Positions 5,594 through 32,252 of a DNA stretch of 33,180 bases are shown here, piece by piece (the first letter of the stretch is position 1; every line of letters begins with the position of its first letter). Made by a program: the position numbers and the translations under genes. The notes beneath the pieces are model-generated. The model had not been told where the DNA came from. It saw nothing but the letters and a program-made list of their open reading frames with translations, and ran no database searches. This DNA comes from a candidate division WWE3 bacterium CSP1-7 (GTDB lineage Bacteria; Patescibacteriota; WWE3; 9FT-COMBO-53-11). The DNA lies in assembly GCA_001443395.1 (NCBI GenBank), contig LDXK01000003.1, positions 1-33,180 on the forward strand, in the 5' to 3' direction.

Positions 5594-5899
5594 CTAGGCT
5601 CCGAGGCCGCCGAGGACGGTATTGATGATGAGGATTGCTCCGAAGATAATGATAAGTCCTAGAACCGCGTATGTGATAGTGGATTTGGAGGTGGTGATCG
5701 CTTTCTCGTCTCCTCCGGAGATCATGTATTGAAGTCCTCCGACCACTAACATGATGAAAGAAACCGCTGCCCCTATGCTAAGTAGGTAGTTAATAATATT
5801 AACTAGAACACAGAATATCCCAGAAATCTCGGGTAACCCGGTTGACGGCACACACTGACCCCCGGTATAACTCCCTATGAATCGGTCGATAGGTTGCAT
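5594..5899 (-). CDS. TrbC/VirB2-like pilin (CPR-type T4SS pilin family)
   Basis: Two hydrophobic helices flanking GGLQYMISGGDEKAITTSKSTITYAVLGL. Confidence 0.85.
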   Translation of the reverse strand: MQPIDRFIGSYTGGQCVPSTGLPEISGIFCVLVNIINYLLSIGAAVSFIMLVVGGLQYMISGGDEKAITTSKSTITYAVLGLIIIFGAILIINTVLGGLGA

Positions 5900-5915
5900 C
5901 TAAATAAACCCAGTC

Positions 5916-6254
5916 TTAGATCAGCGGCTTCCCCGTCAAGATATTTCCAATGAAGTTAATTACCAACCAAGCACCGAAGACGATTACTAACCCCACAACT
6001 GCGGAGGTGATGCGCCCTCTGGCCTGCTCAACGGCGATCTTGTCACCGCCGGAGGTCATGTACTGAATTCCGCCCAAGGCCAATAGAATTAGGGCCAACG
6101 CCCCCACGATTCCTAATATTGCGTTGAAGACTAAACCGATGAGTCCGGGAATATCTTCAGCCGCGGTAATTGGATTTTCGATTGCGAAAATCGGTAGAGC
6201 CGAAAATATCAGTGCCGTTGCTGATGCCGCGATTGTTTTTACTGTTTTAAGCAT
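5916..6254 (-). CDS. TrbC/VirB2-like pilin
   Basis: Signal peptide (PIFA) and GGIQYMTSGGDKIAVEQARGRITSAVVGL; GGGGGTGA RBS. Confidence 0.85.
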   Translation of the reverse strand: MLKTVKTIAASATALIFSALPIFAIENPITAAEDIPGLIGLVFNAILGIVGALALILLALGGIQYMTSGGDKIAVEQARGRITSAVVGLVIVFGAWLVINFIGNILTGKPLI

Positions 6255-15056: not shown

Positions 15057-15145
15057 TGGCGGAGGGGGTGGGATTCGAACCCACGTGAGCCGTTAGGCTC
15101 AAGGGTTTAGCAAACCCTCCCGATGGACCACTCCGGCACCCCTCC
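15057..15145 (-). tRNA. tRNA-Ser(GCT)
   Basis: Cloverleaf with long variable arm; anticodon arm AGGGT-TT-GCT-AA-ACCCT; GTTCGAATC; GCCA end. Confidence 0.95.
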
Positions 15146-15204
15146 GTGTCATCTATATTCTATCAGCTGGAAATTCCCAGTAGCGTTTTGTTACATTAAG
15201 ATTA

Positions 15205-15705
15205 ATGCCGGACAAGCAGGATCTCGAGGAGAGAACCCTTTTGGAGTGGGAGGCGCCGGAACGCCTCTACGTTAAAAGGGGGAAAACCTATTTCAAGAAC
15301 CTTTTTACCCTTCTCGGCGTTCTCGCCGCCGTCGCGATTTTCTTTAAGGAGTTCCTTCTGGCCGGAGTTTTGGCGTCCTTCGGGTTCCTGCAGTGGGCCT
15401 TGAATTCGAGCACCCCCAAAATTACCAAGTATCTCGTCACCAACCGGGGAATCCGAATGCACGGTCACGACTACGAGTGGGAACACCTGAAGGAATTTTG
15501 GTTTGCGGAGCACGCCGGACAGAATGTCCTGCACGTCGACACCAAAGCGACCTTTCCCGGTCGCCTCTACCTGCTCCTCGGAAGAGTGAGCAAAGAGGAA
15601 ATCACAGATGTCTTGCGAAATCACCTTCCCTACCAGCAGCAGGCCAAGGAAGACCTGATGGAGAAGATTTCGGTCGAAGTTTCCCGCCGGTTTCCTTTGG
15701 AATAG
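15205..15705 (+). CDS. Conserved hypothetical membrane protein (two TM + small soluble domain)
   Basis: LLEWEAPER, TM hairpin, GIRMHGHDYEWEHLKEFWF; resembles a common CPR family. Confidence 0.75.
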   Translation: MPDKQDLEERTLLEWEAPERLYVKRGKTYFKNLFTLLGVLAAVAIFFKEFLLAGVLASFGFLQWALNSSTPKITKYLVTNRGIRMHGHDYEWEHLKEFWFAEHAGQNVLHVDTKATFPGRLYLLLGRVSKEEITDVLRNHLPYQQQAKEDLMEKISVEVSRRFPLE

Positions 15706-15754
15706 CTCTTTTTTCTCACCCTTCGGTTATAATTAGAACGATTCTTTAATCATT

Positions 15755-15831
15755 GGGGACGTAGCTCAACTGGACAGAGCGTCAGCTTGCGGAGCTGAAG
15801 GTTGTGGGTTCAACTCCCACCGTCCTCACCA
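15755..15831 (+). tRNA. tRNA-Arg(GCG)
   Basis: GGGGACG/CGTCCTC acceptor; anticodon arm TCAGC-TT-GCG-GA-GCTGA; ACCA end. Confidence 0.93.
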
Positions 15832-15846
15832 TTGATTGTTCTCATT

Positions 15847-15936
15847 GGTGGGATGGCAGAGTGGACGATTGCGCGCGCCTTGAGAGCGCGAGTCCGCGCA
15901 AGTGGACCGGAGGTTCGAATCCTCCTCCCACCGCCA
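15847..15936 (+). tRNA. tRNA-Ser(TGA)
   Basis: Anticodon arm CGCGC-CT-TGA-GA-GCGCG; long variable arm; GCCA end. Confidence 0.95.
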
Positions 15937-15944
15937 AGATTTTA

Positions 15945-16032
15945 GGAGGGGTCGCATAGTGGCCTAGTGCGCACGCTTGGAAAGCGTGTTACCCGCAAGG
16001 GTTCGCGGGTTCAAATCCCGCCCCCTCCGCCA
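15945..16032 (+). tRNA. tRNA-Ser(GGA)
   Basis: Anticodon arm CACGC-TT-GGA-AA-GCGTG; long variable arm; GCCA end. Confidence 0.95.
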
Positions 16033-17616: not shown

Positions 17617-17693
17617 GCGCCCGTAGCTCAGTTGGATAGAGCGCTGCCCTCCGAAGGCAGAGGCCAGAGGTTCGAATCCTCTCGGGCGCACCA
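17617..17693 (+). tRNA. tRNA-Arg(CCG)
   Basis: GCGCCCG/CGGGCGC acceptor; anticodon arm CTGCC-CT-CCG-AA-GGCAG; ACCA end. Confidence 0.95.
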
Positions 17694-17766: not shown

Positions 17767-17787
17767 GTTTTGTTACACTCGTTCCAG

Positions 17788-18711
17788 GTGGCAAAAATTC
17801 AGTTGCCGAAATTCAATAAAAAGCTCGCGGCAATCATTGTCGCGATTTTGCTCCTTCTTCTTGCCGTGATTGCCCTCGCTTGGGACCAATTTGGGCCGGA
17901 GCCCGAAAGTCAACCCACCGAACAGCCGGAAGAAAGTCAGGAAACGCCTCCGGTGGAAGAAGGTGCCCTGATCACCAAGGTCTCCGTGTCGGTTTCCCCC
18001 TCGACCTACTCGAGTACCTCCTGCTCTAAAGCCTTTAAGTTTACCGGCAAAATCACCGCCAGCCGGGAGGGAACGGTGAAATATTACTGGGAAAAGAGCA
18101 ACGGCGGCAAATCCACTTCCCAAACCGTTAAATTCACCAAAGCCGAAACCAAAAGCGTTTCCTATTCCTGGACGGTGAACGGGGATTACAGCGGTTGGGC
18201 TCGGCTCAAAACTACCTCCCCGGAAACACTTACTTCCAGCAAGGCCTCCTTTACCGAAACCTGCGTCTTCGCTGTGACAAGCGTGACGGCGAGCGTTTCT
18301 CCGAGTACGAACAACAGCTGCCCCACCGAGACCTACAACTTTACGGGGAAGATTACGGTTAATGAGGCCGGGACGGTCAAGTATAAGTGGGAGCGGGCCT
18401 ACGACGAGGACTTTGACGGAAGCATCGAGACCCTCTCAAGCACCTCAACTAATAACTTAACTTTCACAAAGGCGGGCACAAAAACGGTAAGCCGATCGGA
18501 TGATTATGGCCTTGAGATAGTTTACGCTCCCGATTCTTCGATATTCTCTAGATTTTTGGTCTGGCTTCGGAACTTGTTTAGCCCGGTTGTCAATGCGATT
18601 TTTTATCCTCCAGATGGTCAAGAAGGATGGGAGCGGATCAAAGTTACTTCTCCTAATTCCAAAACATCAAACAAAGCGGAATTTACCTACGACATGAGCA
18701 ATTGTCTCTGA
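17788..18711 (+). CDS. Membrane-anchored Ser/Thr-rich protein with two tandem Ig-like repeats
   Basis: TM, Pro/Glu linker, two copies of SVSPST..C...F/YxFTGKIT...GTVKYxWE...FTKAxTKxVS...GWxRxKxTSP...SxKAxFT. Confidence 0.8.
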   Translation: MAKIQLPKFNKKLAAIIVAILLLLLAVIALAWDQFGPEPESQPTEQPEESQETPPVEEGALITKVSVSVSPSTYSSTSCSKAFKFTGKITASREGTVKYYWEKSNGGKSTSQTVKFTKAETKSVSYSWTVNGDYSGWARLKTTSPETLTSSKASFTETCVFAVTSVTASVSPSTNNSCPTETYNFTGKITVNEAGTVKYKWERAYDEDFDGSIETLSSTSTNNLTFTKAGTKTVSRSDDYGLEIVYAPDSSIFSRFLVWLRNLFSPVVNAIFYPPDGQEGWERIKVTSPNSKTSNKAEFTYDMSNCL

Positions 18712-18792
18712 TTAACGGGAAAGATATTCCTCGAGCGTGACCCCCTTTTTATAGAGTTTTGTTGCGAGTTGGATCCCAACCCAGCGGATGTA
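18712..18792 (-). pseudogene. Stranded diverged 3' end of the VanY-type peptidase gene
   Basis: Minus strand encodes YIRWVGIQLATKLYKKGVTLEEYLSR* versus HIRYVGIKLATQLYQQKLTLEEYLTRE* at the end of the intact gene. Confidence 0.9.
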
Positions 18793-18796
18793 CTGT

Positions 18797-18814
18797 CCTT
18801 CGCTTACGCTCAGG
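18797..18814. repeat. REP-like short palindrome
   Basis: CCTTCGCTTACGCTCAGG; the reverse complement CCT-GA-GC-GTAA-GC-GA-AGG forms a hairpin with tandem GA pairs and a GNRA loop. Confidence 0.5.
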
Positions 18815-18826
18815 TTGTAATTTCGC

Positions 18827-19585
18827 TTACTCCCTTGTTAGGTACTCTTCTAAAGTTAGTTTTTGTTGATAAAGTTGGGTAGCTAACTTAATTCCGACGT
18901 AGCGAATATGCCAGGGTTCGCTGATGTATCCGGTGATGCTTTCTTTTCCGGGCTGATAGGAAACCGTAAAACCGAATTTGTAGGCGTTCTTGGCGACCCA
19001 GCCGGCGGCGGGGCTGGCGGTGAAGCTCGCAAAATCCGAATTCCCTACCAGACCGAGGTCCACGACTGTTCCAAGCTGGTGTTCGGAATGTCCCGGTCGG
19101 GCGGATCCCATTAAAGCGGCGGCGTATCCGGATTGGCTAACCCAGTAGTTAAAGGTTGCAACTTGAGTAGAGTAGGAGCGATAGGCCGAGACTACGGAAA
19201 GGTTGAAACCGGACGTTTTAGCCGCTCCATAAAGTTGATTGAGATAGTTAAGAATGTCGCCGCCGCGGAGATATTCTGTTCCGGTAGTAGGAATGCTAGT
19301 GATCCTGGTGAGCCCGGGAGGGACGTAGCTCGCCGGCAGGGCGCAGCTCTTATTGACGTGGGTGAGAATCATACCCCCTTCTACAGCGAGCACGCACTCT
19401 CCGGCTTGGATGATATCCCTGGTTCCCAGCACGCTTCCCTGGGTAGCCTCACTCGGCGGGATCGTCGCGAACAGCCCCCAGGATTCCTTGGCGACGATTT
19501 TCTGGGGAGACGCGAACCGGTGGCCGACACCCAATCCCAACAGGAAGAAATACCCCAAGATCGGAAAAAGATGTTTTAGCCGCAT
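18827..19585 (-). CDS. M15B (VanY-like) D-alanyl-D-alanine carboxypeptidase
   Basis: SAYRSYSTQ, SARPGHSEHQLGTVVD and EPWHIRYVG motifs; N-terminal anchor; start MRLKHLF at 19585. Confidence 0.92.
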   Translation of the reverse strand: MRLKHLFPILGYFFLLGLGVGHRFASPQKIVAKESWGLFATIPPSEATQGSVLGTRDIIQAGECVLAVEGGMILTHVNKSCALPASYVPPGLTRITSIPTTGTEYLRGGDILNYLNQLYGAAKTSGFNLSVVSAYRSYSTQVATFNYWVSQSGYAAALMGSARPGHSEHQLGTVVDLGLVGNSDFASFTASPAAGWVAKNAYKFGFTVSYQPGKESITGYISEPWHIRYVGIKLATQLYQQKLTLEEYLTRE

Positions 19586-19610
19586 ACTCCCATTATAATA
19601 GAGCAGGCGG

Positions 19611-19698
19611 GGAGGCGTGGCCGAGTGGACTAAGGCGCCGATCTCGAAAATCGGTTGGGCGCAAGCCCTCACAGGTTCGAATCCTGTCGCCTCCGCCA
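19611..19698 (+). tRNA. tRNA-Ser(CGA)
   Basis: GGAGGCG/CGCCTCC acceptor; anticodon arm CCGAT-CT-CGA-AA-ATCGG; long variable arm; GCCA end. Confidence 0.95.
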
Positions 19699-20407: not shown

Positions 20408-20434
20408 ATTAAATTTTGCTACGATAAGATCGCA

Positions 20435-20752
20435 ATGGAAGCCGCTCCCGCAAAGGACGCGAAAGAAAACTCGCTAGCTTCGCCACGCGAAGTTAAACGC
20501 GTAATCGTGGACCGCAATCTCTGCATCGGTGCCGGCAGCTGTGTCGTCGCCGCTCCGACGGTTTTCGAACTCAACGGTGAGAACAAAGCCGTGATCAAAC
20601 AGCAGGGCGGTGTTAAGAACTCCGGCCCGGCCGAGAGAGAAGTGTTGGAAGACCAAGCGATCCCCTATGAAACTCTCCTGGCGGCGGCCCAGTCCTGTCC
20701 CACCAAAGCGATTATCATTGTTGACGAACAAGGAACCCAAATCTATCCGTGA
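20435..20752 (+). CDS. Single-cluster ferredoxin ([3Fe-4S]-type motif)
   Basis: VDRNLCIGAGSCVVAAPTVF ... AAQSCPTKAI. Confidence 0.9.
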   Translation: MEAAPAKDAKENSLASPREVKRVIVDRNLCIGAGSCVVAAPTVFELNGENKAVIKQQGGVKNSGPAEREVLEDQAIPYETLLAAAQSCPTKAIIIVDEQGTQIYP

Positions 20753-25951: not shown

Positions 25952-27739
25952 GCAGACCAGATTGAAGAAGTAAAACGAAAGCTCGACATTGTTGAAGTTG
26001 TTTCCTCCTATTTTCCGATCCAGAAATCGGGCAAGAATTACAAAGCCGTTTGCCCGTTCCACTCTGAGAAAACCCCCTCCTTTATGGTTTCCCCCCAGCT
26101 CCAGATTTTCAAGTGCTTTGGGTGCGGCGAAGGCGGCGATGTTATCTCTTTCTACGGCAAAATGGAGGGAGTTTCCTTTAGCGAAGCGCTCCGGGAAATG
26201 GCGAAGCGGGCCGGGGTGAAACTCATCTCCCGAAAGGAGAGCCCGGAGGAGCAGCGCAAGGAGAGACTGCTGGAGCTGAACCGCCTCGCAGCCGACTACT
26301 ACCACTTTTTACTAACTGATCACAAAATTGGTTCAAAAGCGAAAGAATTTTTGAAGAGCCGCGGCGTGAAGGATCAAACGATTGAGGACTTCGAGATCGG
26401 CTACGCTCCCTCTTCTTGGGATAGTCTGGGCCGTTATCTTCTGAAGAAGGGCTACAGTCTTACCGAGCTGTTTCAATCCGGTCTGGCGGTTCGGAAAGAG
26501 GGCGGCCGGGGCTATTTCGATTTCTTCCGCGGCCGGGTGATGTATCCCCTCCGTTCCTCCCTGGGGAAGGTGGCCGGTTTCGCGGGAAGAACTCTTGGTG
26601 ATGACCAACCCAAATACATCAATACGGTCGAGACCTCCGTTTTTGAAAAAGGGCGCTACCTCTTCAATCTTGATCTCGGAAAAACGGAGATCAAAAAGAA
26701 GAGAGAAGCCATTCTGGTCGAGGGGGAAATGGACGCCATTCTTCTCTTTCAGGAGGGGGTCAGGAACGTGATCGCTACCAAGGGAACCGCGTTGTCCACC
26801 TCCCAAATCGTCACCATGTCGAAATTTGCCAAGCGATTGATCATCTGTTTTGACCGCGACGCCGCCGGGTTGGAAGCGACCAAGAAGGGTCTGTTTTTGG
26901 CGCTGGGAGCGGGGTTGGAAGTGGCGGCGGTGCTTCTTCCGGAAGGCAAGGATCCCGATGAAGCGGTTCTGGCGGACCGGGCGGGATTCGAAAAGCTGAT
27001 CAGCTCCGCGCCGCCTCTCTTTGATTTTTACCTTAGTTCGGCCCTCTCGCGTTTTGATCCGAAAACACCGGCCGGCAAGAAAGCTATCTCGGCCGAAATT
27101 CTTCCGGTGGTGAAGAGCTTGGCGAACGAAGTGGAAAAGGCCGCCTATCTTTCTCGGCTGGCGGAGGCGATCGAGATCGAGGAGGATGTTCTCTGGCGCC
27201 AGCTCGAGAAGGAGGAGCCGCTGGAAGAGGCGGGTTCGGCATCGGCCGCTCCGCTCTCACCGCGGGTTTCAGCGAGTAAGAAGGAGCTCTACCTCACCGC
27301 CCTTCTCTTTGCGCTCCCGCCGGAACGGATTAGGGCGGCCGCGCGGCAGATCGCCGAGGGCGATATCACCGATCCGCGGCTGACTCTCGTCATTACCTCT
27401 CTGCGGGATTATCTTAAGAGAATCAAGCGATTTCGTCTGGAGAATTTTTCTGTTAAACTGGATGAGAATTCCCGAGAGGCCCTGCAGGAAGCGGCGCTCG
27501 CTCCCTTTCTAGGTGATCTTCTTCCGGACCAGTTGGAGGAGGAGTTCGGTTACGCCGCCAAGAGTGTTAAGCTCGTTCGCCTGCAAAAGGAGCGCAAAGA
27601 GCTGGTGGCGCAGATCAGGGGGGCGGAAAAAGCCAAGGATGCCCCGGGGATCCGGCGCTCGGAGAAAGAACTTCTCAAGCTCAATGAGAAGATTGAATTG
27701 GTTCGGAACCAAAATGGACGATCGCCCGAGACGACTTAA
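25949..27739 (+). CDS. dnaG: DNA primase
   Basis: CPFHSEKTPSF...CFGC zinc finger, KYINT, TOPRIM VEGEMD and FDRDAAG, KDPDE. Confidence 0.97.
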   Translation: MADQIEEVKRKLDIVEVVSSYFPIQKSGKNYKAVCPFHSEKTPSFMVSPQLQIFKCFGCGEGGDVISFYGKMEGVSFSEALREMAKRAGVKLISRKESPEEQRKERLLELNRLAADYYHFLLTDHKIGSKAKEFLKSRGVKDQTIEDFEIGYAPSSWDSLGRYLLKKGYSLTELFQSGLAVRKEGGRGYFDFFRGRVMYPLRSSLGKVAGFAGRTLGDDQPKYINTVETSVFEKGRYLFNLDLGKTEIKKKREAILVEGEMDAILLFQEGVRNVIATKGTALSTSQIVTMSKFAKRLIICFDRDAAGLEATKKGLFLALGAGLEVAAVLLPEGKDPDEAVLADRAGFEKLISSAPPLFDFYLSSALSRFDPKTPAGKKAISAEILPVVKSLANEVEKAAYLSRLAEAIEIEEDVLWRQLEKEEPLEEAGSASAAPLSPRVSASKKELYLTALLFALPPERIRAAARQIAEGDITDPRLTLVITSLRDYLKRIKRFRLENFSVKLDENSREALQEAALAPFLGDLLPDQLEEEFGYAAKSVKLVRLQKERKELVAQIRGAEKAKDAPGIRRSEKELLKLNEKIELVRNQNGRSPETT

Positions 27740-27808
27740 CATTTGTCCGTCGCTGTTCAAATGGACGACTCGCGATGCGAGATCTAGCATTTTTGCTTTG
27801 CTCAAATG
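27714..27808 (+). promoter_or_regulatory. Two-hairpin start-codon element, tandem copies 2 and 3 (rpoD leader)
   Basis: ATG at 27714, 27761 and 27806 delimit two units of 47 and 45 nt, each ATGGAC-stem-TAR-CATTT-loop-AAATG. Confidence 0.7.
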
Positions 27809-28963
27809 AAACCAACGCTTAAAGATTCACCGCTGGTCGCAAAACTTTTGGAAAAAGGCAAAAGAGAGGGTTACGTAACCCAGGAGGAAGTATTGGAGTT
27901 CTTCCCCGAGGCCGAAGAGGACATCGAGAAGCTGGATGATCTCTACACCCTCCTGATCGAGGAGGGGGTGGATGTTTTTGAAACCGCCGAAGAAGAAGCC
28001 CCGCCGGAGGAAGTGGAGCGGGAATTGGAGGTCCAGGTCGCCCACGACGTGACCGTCACTTCCGACCCGGTGCGAATGTATCTTCGGGAAATCGGTCGGA
28101 CCGCTCTGCTGACCAAAGCGGACGAAGTTACTCTCGCCCAGCAAATCGAGAAAGGAACGGCGGCGGTCTGGCGGCTGAAAAGAGCAACTTCCCGAATGGG
28201 CCGTCCCACCCGCGAGAGAATGAAGGCTCTGGCCCGGATCGGGGATATCGCCCGCGAAAAACTCACCAAAGCGAACCTGCGTTTGGTGGTTTCCATCGCC
28301 AAGAAATACCTGGGGCGGGGGCTTTCGTTTTTGGATTTGATCCAGGAAGGGAACATCGGCCTGATGCGGGCGGTCGAGAAATTCGATTGGAAGCGGGGAT
28401 TCAAGTTCTCAACCTATGCGACCTGGTGGATTCGGCAGGGAATCACCCGAGCGATCGCCGACCAGGCGCGGACGATCCGGATTCCGGTGCACATGATCGA
28501 GACCATCAACAAATTCCACCGGGTGCAGCGTCAGCTGGAGCAAAAACTCGATCGCGAACCCACTCCCCACGAGATCTCCAAGGAATTGGAACTCCCCGTC
28601 GAAAAAGTGCGGGAGATCATCAAAGTTTCCCAACGGCCGACTTCTCTGGAGACGCCAATCGGCGAAGAAAAAGATTCTCGGCTCAAAGACTTCGTTGCCG
28701 ATGAAGAAGTTTCCGCCCCCACCGACGACACCTCCAAGGAGCTTCTCAAACAACAGTTGCTGGAGGTTCTGGGGACGCTCTCTCCCCGGGAGCAAAAAGT
28801 AATCGAACTCCGTTTTGGTCTGCGCGACGGCAAGCCCCGGACGCTGGAAGCGGTCGGGAGGGAGTTTGGCGTGACCCGCGAACGGATTCGCCAGATTGAG
28901 GCCAAGGCAATCCGCAAACTGCGCCACCCCTCCCGCTCCAAGCTCATTAAGGATTATCTCTAG
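27806..28963 (+). CDS. rpoD: RNA polymerase primary sigma factor
   Basis: [52 protein letters not shown]. Confidence 0.98.
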
Positions 28964-32208: not shown

Positions 32209-32252
32209 ATGGACGGTCGGAGAAACGGCCTAGCATTTTGGAGAAAAAAATG
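32209..32252 (+). promoter_or_regulatory. Two-hairpin start-codon element, copy 4 (GH1 leader)
   Basis: ATGGAC-GGTCG-GAGAAA-CGGCC-TAG-CATTTT-GGAGAAA-AAAATG(start). Confidence 0.65.

Follow-up and report, generated by a model that had tools for sequence, protein, structure and literature searches.

The 3′ end of a gene for a VanY-type (peptidase M15B) carboxypeptidase is present twice in the genome of the candidate division WWE3 bacterium CSP1-7 (assembly GCA_001443395.1). The gene lies within the stretch of DNA analysed here, positions 1 to 33,180 of contig LDXK01000003.1 (33,180 nt, hereafter the window), and is listed as an open reading frame (ORF) on the minus strand at 18827–19588, including its TAA stop codon (18827–18829). 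In a Pfam profile search, its product matched PF02557 (VanY) with an E value of 1.7e-33 and 115.7 bits, against a cut-off of 25. The NCBIfam models for VanY, VanXY and LdcB all match the protein as well, but all below their cut-offs, and therefore no specific enzyme name is warranted. Residues H167, D177 and H227, which we take to be the zinc ligands, are invariant across eight VanY-type orthologues; H227 belongs to the motif EPWH (E224, P225, W226 and H227, encoded at 18908–18919 on the minus strand), which is likewise unchanged in eight out of eight.

The EPWH codons specify the last residues that are common to the gene body, to its new end and, in relatives, to the remnant of its old end. 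Directly after the His codon (CAT, 18908–18910), that is, after position 18908, begins the replacement C-terminal segment, 26 codons reading IRYVGIKLATQLYQQKLTLEEYLTRE (18830–18907, minus strand), which was delimited from the sequence and by BLASTP against the second copy. This second copy, the stranded remnant, comprises 25 codons (IRWVGIQLATKLYKKGVTLEEYLSR) and a TAA stop (18712–18714), and occupies 18712–18789 on the same strand: beyond a spacer of 34 nt (18793–18826), the minus strand reads YIRWVGIQLATKLYKKGVTLEEYLSR up to the stop at 18712–18714, and the translation of 18712–18828 ends in VSEGQYIRWVGIQLATKLYKKGVTLEEYLSR and the stop. The remnant is in frame +1 relative to the gene.

A diverged copy of the gene end 34 nt downstream of the gene had been proposed in an earlier annotation based on the letters of the sequence (the original prediction), and the comparison of the two peptides bears this out. 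The remnant aligns to residues 222–252 of the VanY-type protein (18830–19588) with 19 identities out of 31 (BLASTP, E 2e-11). In a genome-wide scan in which the tail of each ORF was compared with its own downstream DNA, the pair scored 98, against a maximum of 42 in the null set (2752 tails randomly paired with other downstream regions). At the nucleotide level, the two copies differ at 33 of 75 positions, with 15 synonymous and 8 non-synonymous codon differences and changes at 21 of the 25 third positions. The observation of a stranded end at this gene is confirmed.

The position of the remnant is also as predicted, in that its TAA directly adjoins, with zero gap, the TGA stop (18709–18711) of a convergent ORF on the plus strand (17770–18711, 313 aa), for which no Pfam or NCBIfam match was found; the breakpoint, too, falls at EPWH, where it had been placed. 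What are probably the native last 25 codons of the gene (18789–18712) have been cut off and lie stranded, apparently at their native position, by the convergent gene, and the gene itself is intact. At the codon after EPWH stands a unit of about 118 nt, which is composed of the replacement end with its stop (18907–18827) and of an element (18826–18790) belonging to a hairpin family that resembles REPs (repetitive extragenic palindromes) and that we call REP1.

The REP1 copy was recognized by its match to the family pattern (minus strand, core at 18791–18818, final C at 18790). It contains a hairpin with tandem G.A pairs, CCTGAGCG-TAA-GCGAAGG (18797–18814), whose end is 4 nt short of the Tyr codon, as had been foreseen; in the strict parse of the family pattern, its outer pair is A..T and its stem carries a paired T/A insertion. 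Directly 5′ of the core, and overlapping the stop codon, lies the 9-nt segment GTAAGCGAA (18822–18830), a candidate guide-like sequence. The same 9 nt occur again at 18799–18807, so that the region 18799–18830 of the minus strand is bounded by two direct repeats, and an indel polymorphism of 23 nt exists between them: 23 nt are missing at 18799 in the main contigs of the public sequencing runs X20, X17 and X16, whereas run X1, possibly the sample of origin, carries the form seen in the window. Because the length of the deletion is exactly the distance between the two copies of GTAAGCGAA, the population is losing the hairpin half of this spacer through slippage. A search of Rfam gave no family for the spacer, both when the window was scanned at gathering thresholds and when 18650–18950 was scanned with E values up to 10.

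Six tRNA genes, four for Ser and two for Arg, surround the locus (15057–16032, 17617–17693 and 19611–19698 of the window); one of them, tRNA-Ser(CGA), lies on the other strand 23 nt upstream of the start of the VanY-type gene.

Recurrence of the layout in the genome and in relatives

The genome under study (G000) is a metagenome-assembled draft of 572 kb in 7 contigs, 80% complete. It was compared with relatives labelled G001 to G005, among which G002 is the sister species (genome 83% complete); the comparison covered the four species of the genus and other genera. The same layout, that is, a working end with its stop, a spacer, and an old end with its own stop, was found at eight further genes of G000, located on contigs C1 and C5, which together with VanY brings the number of units of this kind in the genome to at least nine. 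The highest suffix scores were those of EF-G (77; the spacer holds two copies of a hairpin that we call REP3), S11 (67; the spacer holds a hairpin of the type REP2, and the remnant stop directly precedes the start of S4), GAPDH (57; REP2) and HrcA (56; REP2). A Mg-chelatase-like gene scored 44, with a spacer of 21 nt and no hairpin, and an unnamed gene scored 42, equal to the null maximum, with a spacer of 5 nt and again no hairpin. The scores of a formyltransferase (31; REP1) and of S9 (29; REP2-like) are below the null maximum. Six out of the eight spacers thus contain a hairpin.

These data support the earlier suggestion of a recurrent process with REP-like hairpins at the junctions. In contrast, the second scar that had been reported within 8 kb of the VanY locus was not found inside the window by the tail scans, the further cases being those on C1 and C5. 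The top match of the tail scan, at 5594–6254 of the window on the minus strand, consists of two small adjacent paralogous ORFs (101 and 112 aa) whose C-terminal halves are hydrophobic and resemble each other; these are full tandem genes, and the pair was rejected as a scar.

Among relatives the layout is patchy. The VanY-type orthologue itself was found only in the ten genomes of the family (class-level search), and three of these ten (G000, G001 and G004) show the layout, with the remnant in frame +1 in G000, 0 in G004 and +2 in G001, where it also contains an internal stop. At EF-G the layout is present in four of the six genomes examined, which are all four species of the genus, and always at the same junction, between H and YE; the hairpin in G003 is REP2 and not REP3, and the remnant in G002 is mostly deleted. 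The layout was also seen at S11 in three of six genomes (G000, G003 and G005), at GAPDH in one of the three that were readable, at HrcA in four of the eight displayed, and at the Mg-chelatase-like gene in G004 as well as in G000. It should be noted that runs of N cover the gene ends of S11 (L042) and GAPDH (L047) in G003, so that the present ends are unreadable there. The junctions fall just after highly conserved motifs, such as EPWH, EPSHY, PIPHNG and NEWGYS.

At HrcA in G004, two nucleotide-identical units stand in tandem, each followed by a hairpin. This arrangement is possibly the birth stage of the layout, although its location at a contig end calls for care. A scan of metagenomes for further VanY cases returned 80 loci, 68 of them with a readable EPWH-type tail, and the best score of a tail against its downstream DNA was 43, which is noise, so that no further case emerged; close relatives among these loci were limited to L048 and L051, of which L051 is identical to G002.

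Hairpin families, candidate enzyme and guide-like complementarity

The core of REP1 can be written as RCAACC-(GA-GC-loop-GC-GA)-GGACAGYAY. A loose form of this pattern gave 25 matches in G000, as compared with one match for a reversed-pattern control; in the four species of the genus the matches were 25, 34, 17 and 13 (control 0–2), while in other genera the counts were near background. Out of 21 strict matches, 20 form the hairpin, and the outer pair of these is G..C in 16 and A..T in 4, with no mismatch; insertions in the stem are always paired (T/A three times, C/G once). It is on this repetition and covariation that the reality of the VanY hairpin rests. Nine REP1 copies open with a longer common leader that overlaps the stop codon of the upstream gene. 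At C1:172175-172260 in G000, two REP1 units stand in direct tandem with a period of 43 nt, and about 17 nt of the end of the upstream gene (AAGATGATTGGTTACTT) are repeated after them.

A second family, REP2 (CTAG-stem-loop-stem-CGTCC), gave 37 strict matches in G000 against one for the control, and 49, 40, 18 and 17 matches in G001 to G004. REP3 is a third hairpin form, located behind EF-G. A GTAG or CGTC tag at the end of the hairpin is described as a feature of REPs (PMC3733652); REP2 ends in CGTCC, whereas REP1, the family found at VanY, ends with neither GTAG nor CGTC.

As for an enzyme that might act on these repeats, profile searches detected in G000 a single Y1 HUH transposase-like protein of 215 aa, encoded at C1:146028-146672, which resembles the REP-associated tyrosine transposases (RAYTs) and matches PF01797 with 33.8 bits, above the cut-off of 23 bits. 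A REP1 copy lies about 30 nt upstream of its gene, on the other strand.

When the bases directly 5′ of the hairpin core are compared with those at which the replaced segment begins, the two are often reverse complements. An automated test covered 17 locus-by-genome cases, and six of these showed a longest match of 7–14 nt at the junction that none of 49 upstream control windows reached: GAPDH, HrcA in G000 and in G002, the Mg-chelatase-like gene, the formyltransferase and S9. In two further cases, 3 of the 49 control windows reached the match. The partners at the formyltransferase are TTCACTA/TAGTGAA in G000 and TTCGTTA/TAACGAA in G001, i.e. they differ by compensatory changes. At HrcA, the pairing forms a stem of 11–14 nt in G000 and a long stem also in G001, and involves ATTTGGC/GCCAAAT in G002; the HrcA cassette folds into a 14-bp stem plus the hairpin, with z −4.2. 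In 22 out of 53 REP2 copies, the 5′ flank and the 3′ flank form inverted complements of 5 nt or more, compared with 11.5% in shuffled pairings, and the base pairs involved vary from copy to copy.

Origin of the two ends and possible mechanisms

When the nine pairs of working and stranded ends are pooled (107 codons), they show 61 synonymous and 17 non-synonymous codon differences, with 96 nucleotide differences in all and 72 of the 107 third positions changed. If the same 96 changes were introduced neutrally into one copy, a mean of 58 residue changes would result; none of 20000 trials gave 17 or fewer, and a new stop was created in 98% of the simulations. Saturated third positions together with conserved residues mean that neutral decay from identical copies cannot explain the data. 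So far as the pattern of substitutions can tell, both copies of each pair evolved under protein-level selection, so that either the two derive from separately evolving working alleles, or the stranded copy would still be under selection.

The history of the two ends can be read most directly at two loci, at which sequence comparison identifies the stranded copy as the orthologue of the working end of the sister species. At the formyltransferase, G002 has no hairpin, and its working end, stop and downstream context match the remnant and flank of G000; the working end of G000 resembles instead that of G001, which likewise carries REP1. At HrcA, G000 and G002 are 0.91 identical over the gene body (225 codons) and 0.74 over the present end, and the stranded copy of G002 matches the present end of G000 at 36 of 39 positions; G003 has no unit, and the flank after its gene end equals the flank after the G000 remnant. 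At EF-G, remnants resemble the present ends of other species (G001 remnant and G000 end, G003 remnant and G002 end), which looks like serial displacement. The claim that the downstream copy is the original end is therefore directly supported at the formyltransferase and HrcA. The case is less strong for VanY itself: the flush stop and the higher identity to the G002 working end (72% at the nucleotide and 77% at the amino acid level for the remnant, against 64% and 69% for the present end) are suggestive, the comparison being made by identity matrices alone on 78-nt ends that are too short to name a donor. A recombination boundary within the VanY-type gene could not be placed, sliding identity and third-position matrices being too noisy.

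As an explanation we tentatively propose, with a probability of about 0.45, that the unit is a hairpin-linked, probably guide-directed gene-end cassette. Such a unit would consist of the replacement end with its stop, a locus-specific segment x′ and the hairpin core K, and would move between diverged alleles as single-stranded DNA. The segment x′, located 5′ of the hairpin, would act as a guide, being complementary to x (the bases with which the replaced segment opens) as well as to the beginning of the stranded copy. A Y1 HUH enzyme, for which the single RAYT-like protein is the candidate, would make one cut at the paired left site and another immediately 3′ of the hairpin tail, and the piece would be pasted at the same site of an allele without the unit. 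Precise loss would return the stranded end to use, and this may be the reason that such ends have remained readable. Later decay of the hairpin would be represented by the 23-nt deletion in other samples. A cassette of this kind would account for the junctions shared across species, for the missing second hairpin behind the remnants, for the silent divergence, for the stacking of units and for the putative birth stage at HrcA in G004. A more far-reaching version, which we regard as doubtful, is that the hairpin repeats are the active part of a new kind of selfish element, a mini-cassette with a guide, which would write its own synonymous copy over the final codons of essential genes, find the corresponding codon of related species through base pairing and be able to leave precisely, so that both ends would be kept under selection.

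Several results weigh against a guide-directed cassette. Two spacers, those of 5 and 21 nt, have no hairpin in spite of their remnants. In the complementarity test, 9 of the 17 cases were not above background, and VanY in G000 gave a match of only 4 nt, reached by 41 of the 49 controls, with the junction misplaced by the automatic procedure; by eye, GTAAGCGAA can be paired with TTCGCTAC (18899–18906) over 8 bp with a bulge, a pairing supported neither by the automated test nor by folding. Among the REP1 copies tested, none of eight had flank complementarity of at least 5 nt. The 131-nt VanY cassette folded no better than shuffled sequences (z 0.04), and the 71-nt spacer region was no more stable than shuffles (DNA energy parameters, z −0.61); for this reason, folding energy is not used as evidence at VanY. 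As to the enzyme, a RAYT/HUH or GIY-YIG gene with the same flanking palindromes had been named as something to look for; the RAYT-like gene exists and has its REP1 copy upstream, but a REP is found on one side only, and the match to NF047646 (REP-associated tyrosine transposase) is 56.9 bits, below the cut-off of 80 bits. RAYT homologues in six other genomes had no flanking match to the REP patterns used, and G002 has many REPs and no RAYT detected in its 83%-complete genome. No excision product, circle junction, joined form or empty site was present in the contigs of the four runs inspected. Since protein similarity was the basis on which the pairs were picked, the sample is skewed in favour of conserved ones. 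Finally, the analogy with IS200/IS605 elements is loose, since these have two end hairpins, guides of 4–5 nt that are partly non-canonical, a fixed target and no flanking direct repeats.

The main rival is import by recombination without any dedicated enzyme, in which the allele of a diverged relative carrying a REP after its stop would have been taken up, the upstream side by homologous pairing and the downstream side by joining at microhomology (homology-facilitated illegitimate recombination), with the hairpin setting the end of the strand. We consider it rather unlikely, even if it agrees equally well with a divergence limited to synonymous changes and with remnants that are native. The location of the junctions behind the conserved motifs EPWH, EPSHY, PIPHNG and NEWGYS agrees with it, as do the tails of the REPs, which resemble the gene sequence before the junction over 2–6 nt (e.g. 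TGGCAC in G001), and the many REP copies directly after stop codons, as donors would need. At HrcA, moreover, the divergence between G000 and G002 starts about 10 codons upstream of the junction. However, import leaves unexplained the locus-specific complementarity with its compensatory changes, the donor end that is always exactly the 3′ tail of the REP, and the different REP families at the same codon of EF-G, and no mosaic boundary is resolvable in VanY.

Duplication in place is improbable. The end would have been duplicated in tandem by slippage or template switching at the hairpin, followed by long divergence, and the downstream copy would have been kept because it also carries a signal of another kind, be it a ribosome-binding site for the gene that follows, a terminator or the end of the convergent gene. 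Signals of this kind can indeed be pointed out, because the S11 remnant abuts the start of S4 and contains AGGAGA 8 nt before it, and the VanY remnant abuts the convergent stop; the identical tandem units at HrcA in G004 and the 23-nt slippage deletion between 9-nt repeats in the population point in the same direction. On the other hand, the duplication fails the selection test described above (72 of 107 third positions, no match in 20000 simulations, a stop gained in 98%). In addition, no second hairpin follows any old remnant among the loci and relatives displayed, which argues against simple tandem duplication there, the remnants match the working ends of sister species, and what is a remnant in one species is the present end in another.

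Even less probable is a switch at the level of the host, acting on DNA or RNA, in which both ends would be working parts and the hairpin would mediate the choice between two C-termini. Protein-level selection on both copies would be expected in this case, and if everything between the left junction and the REP tail were removed, the reading frame would be kept by construction. Nevertheless, the remnant frames at VanY vary among species (+1, 0 and +2), the G001 remnant contains an internal stop and the EF-G remnant of G002 is mostly deleted, the genes concerned have housekeeping roles and their alternative ends are nearly identical, the spacer contains no Rfam family or known ribozyme, and no joined form was seen in the contigs.

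An assembly artefact, in which two strain variants of the gene end were concatenated, has a negligible probability in spite of the draft nature of the metagenome assembly (7 contigs, 80% complete) and of low-depth contigs from related strains in the same runs, since the order gene, spacer, remnant recurs in the Logan contigs of four out of four runs, one X16 contig covering the whole 1801 nt, and the same layout and repeat family occur in the genomes of other species; misassembly of two strains, which would have undone the original prediction, is thereby ruled against. At least 0.92 of the sampled words of 17800–19600 were present in 20 of the 24 public runs listed; no RNA data set containing the stretch was among those listed. 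Low-depth sequences from related strains, among them an X17 contig in which 18681–18956 are skipped as well as other diverged pieces, are uninterpretable.

Three further candidates were considered and rejected. Translational recoding by read-through or frameshift is inconsistent with remnant frames of +1 (G000), 0 (G004) and +2 (G001) and with the internal stop in G001. A diversity-generating retroelement is inconsistent with the lack of any match to RVT_1, the reverse transcriptase profile, in the genome, and with differences that, where a confinement to adenines would be expected, are of all kinds and lie at third positions. With regard to TnpB/omega-RNA and IS110/bridge-RNA systems, neither TnpB nor an IS110 transposase was found in the 80%-complete genome.

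Comparison with known systems and other repeat copies

The cassettes of integrons combine a coding piece with a folded hairpin site (attC). The units described here share this combination and the arrangement in which the opening bases of a unit complement the 5′ edge of its hairpin site and resemble the opening bases of whatever comes next; units can also stack, with older ones pushed downstream. In contrast to integrons, no integron integrase or attI platform was recognized in the genome, and its only tyrosine recombinase (C3:55532-56023, 36 kb from the VanY locus) is untyped; the core sequences are locus-specific with no shared consensus, and the cargo is the last 5–31 codons of the resident gene.

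Some phages and islands (e14 and phage 21 in icd, others in tRNA genes) replace the 3′ end of their target and strand the native end downstream. The outcome is similar, in that the gene works with a 3′ end of foreign origin, diverged at synonymous sites, and has its native end downstream, but there a whole element with its integrase separates the two ends, while here the distance is 5–80 nt (34 nt at VanY). The orphan C-terminal modules of Rhs and CdiA and the silent pilS cassettes likewise place a new 3′ module at a conserved motif and leave the older one downstream, with serial displacement. Those systems serve toxin or antigen diversity and come with immunity genes or many variants; in contrast, the ends compared here encode near-identical peptides and belong to housekeeping genes.

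With the IS200/IS605 family (IS608, ISDra2 and their miniature derivatives), the units share the Y1 HUH enzyme, if the candidate is the right one, a hairpin and, as proposed, a guide-like segment 5′ of its foot and cleavage of the right end a few bases 3′ of the hairpin. In that family, a short guide 5′ of the hairpin foot pairs with the cleavage or target site (PMC8266576). The differences are that each unit here has one hairpin and a Watson–Crick, locus-specific complement of 5–14 nt, that its cargo is a gene end, and that no tnpA, tnpB or other ORF lies inside the units.

The repeats also resemble REPs with their RAYTs (‘REPtrons’), which likewise involve short hairpin repeats in high copy number, mostly just downstream of genes, and a single-copy Y1 HUH gene with one repeat copy adjoining; the CGTC(C) end of REP2 is, moreover, the tag of one REP superfamily (PMC3733652). 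The known REPs, however, are not reported with a copy of the neighbouring gene end or with a complementary locus-specific segment, and the RAYT match is here below the NCBIfam cut-off, in a host with a very small genome, probably of the Candidate Phyla Radiation type. The word ‘duplication’ is absent from PMC3733652, and how REPs spread “remains to be elucidated” (PMC8266576). In the literature as far as its text was accessible, REP-linked duplication or stranding of gene ends was not found described; Additional file 3 of PMC3733652, on REPs inside ORFs, may bear on the point. None of the known systems compared fits as a family: REP-like repeats and HUH enzymes are elements of a known kind, but the stranding behaviour appears to be undescribed.

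What is seen at VanY is the tip of a process that extends across the genome and the family. In very small genomes, even core genes (EF-G, S11, S9, GAPDH) have had diverged copies put in place of their last codons. The short ‘pseudogene’ tails left behind are easily overlooked in annotation, and the replacement has a bearing on phylogenies built on the affected genes as well as on estimates of gene exchange among uncultured bacteria. If the selfish cassette were real, it would provide REP-type repeats with their missing mechanism of spread. The footprints of the repeats (stranded ends, microhomology at the junctions and a locus-specific complementary segment with compensatory changes) lead to testable predictions on cut sites, guide pairing and target choice.

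Other REP2 copies were noted at gene starts. In the window, a REP2 core at 27762–27789 (minus strand, within 27735–27806) lies directly upstream of the start of the ORF at 27806–28963, and the start context of this ORF is found on both sides of it, as GTTCAAATG fused to the hairpin and as CTCAAATG at the real start; this is a 5′-end counterpart of the 3′-end scars. The corresponding arrangement of CATTTT/AAAATG at gene starts, on the other strand, occurs in many REP2 copies elsewhere. Two more REP2-type matches on the minus strand of the window are one at 32210–32235, between ORFs and with the usual AAAATG/CAT flanks, and one at 20425–20477, within the first codons of the ORF at 20435–20752 and apparently in frame. 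Finally, at four REP2 copies of G000 (C2:55262, C2:78051, C2:37985 and C3:33910, the last just past the end of the window), the 3′ flank resembles the reverse complement of a tRNA D-arm (CCACTGA[AG]CTACC) and the 5′ flank contains a matching inverted copy; these copies may be insertions at or in tRNA genes.

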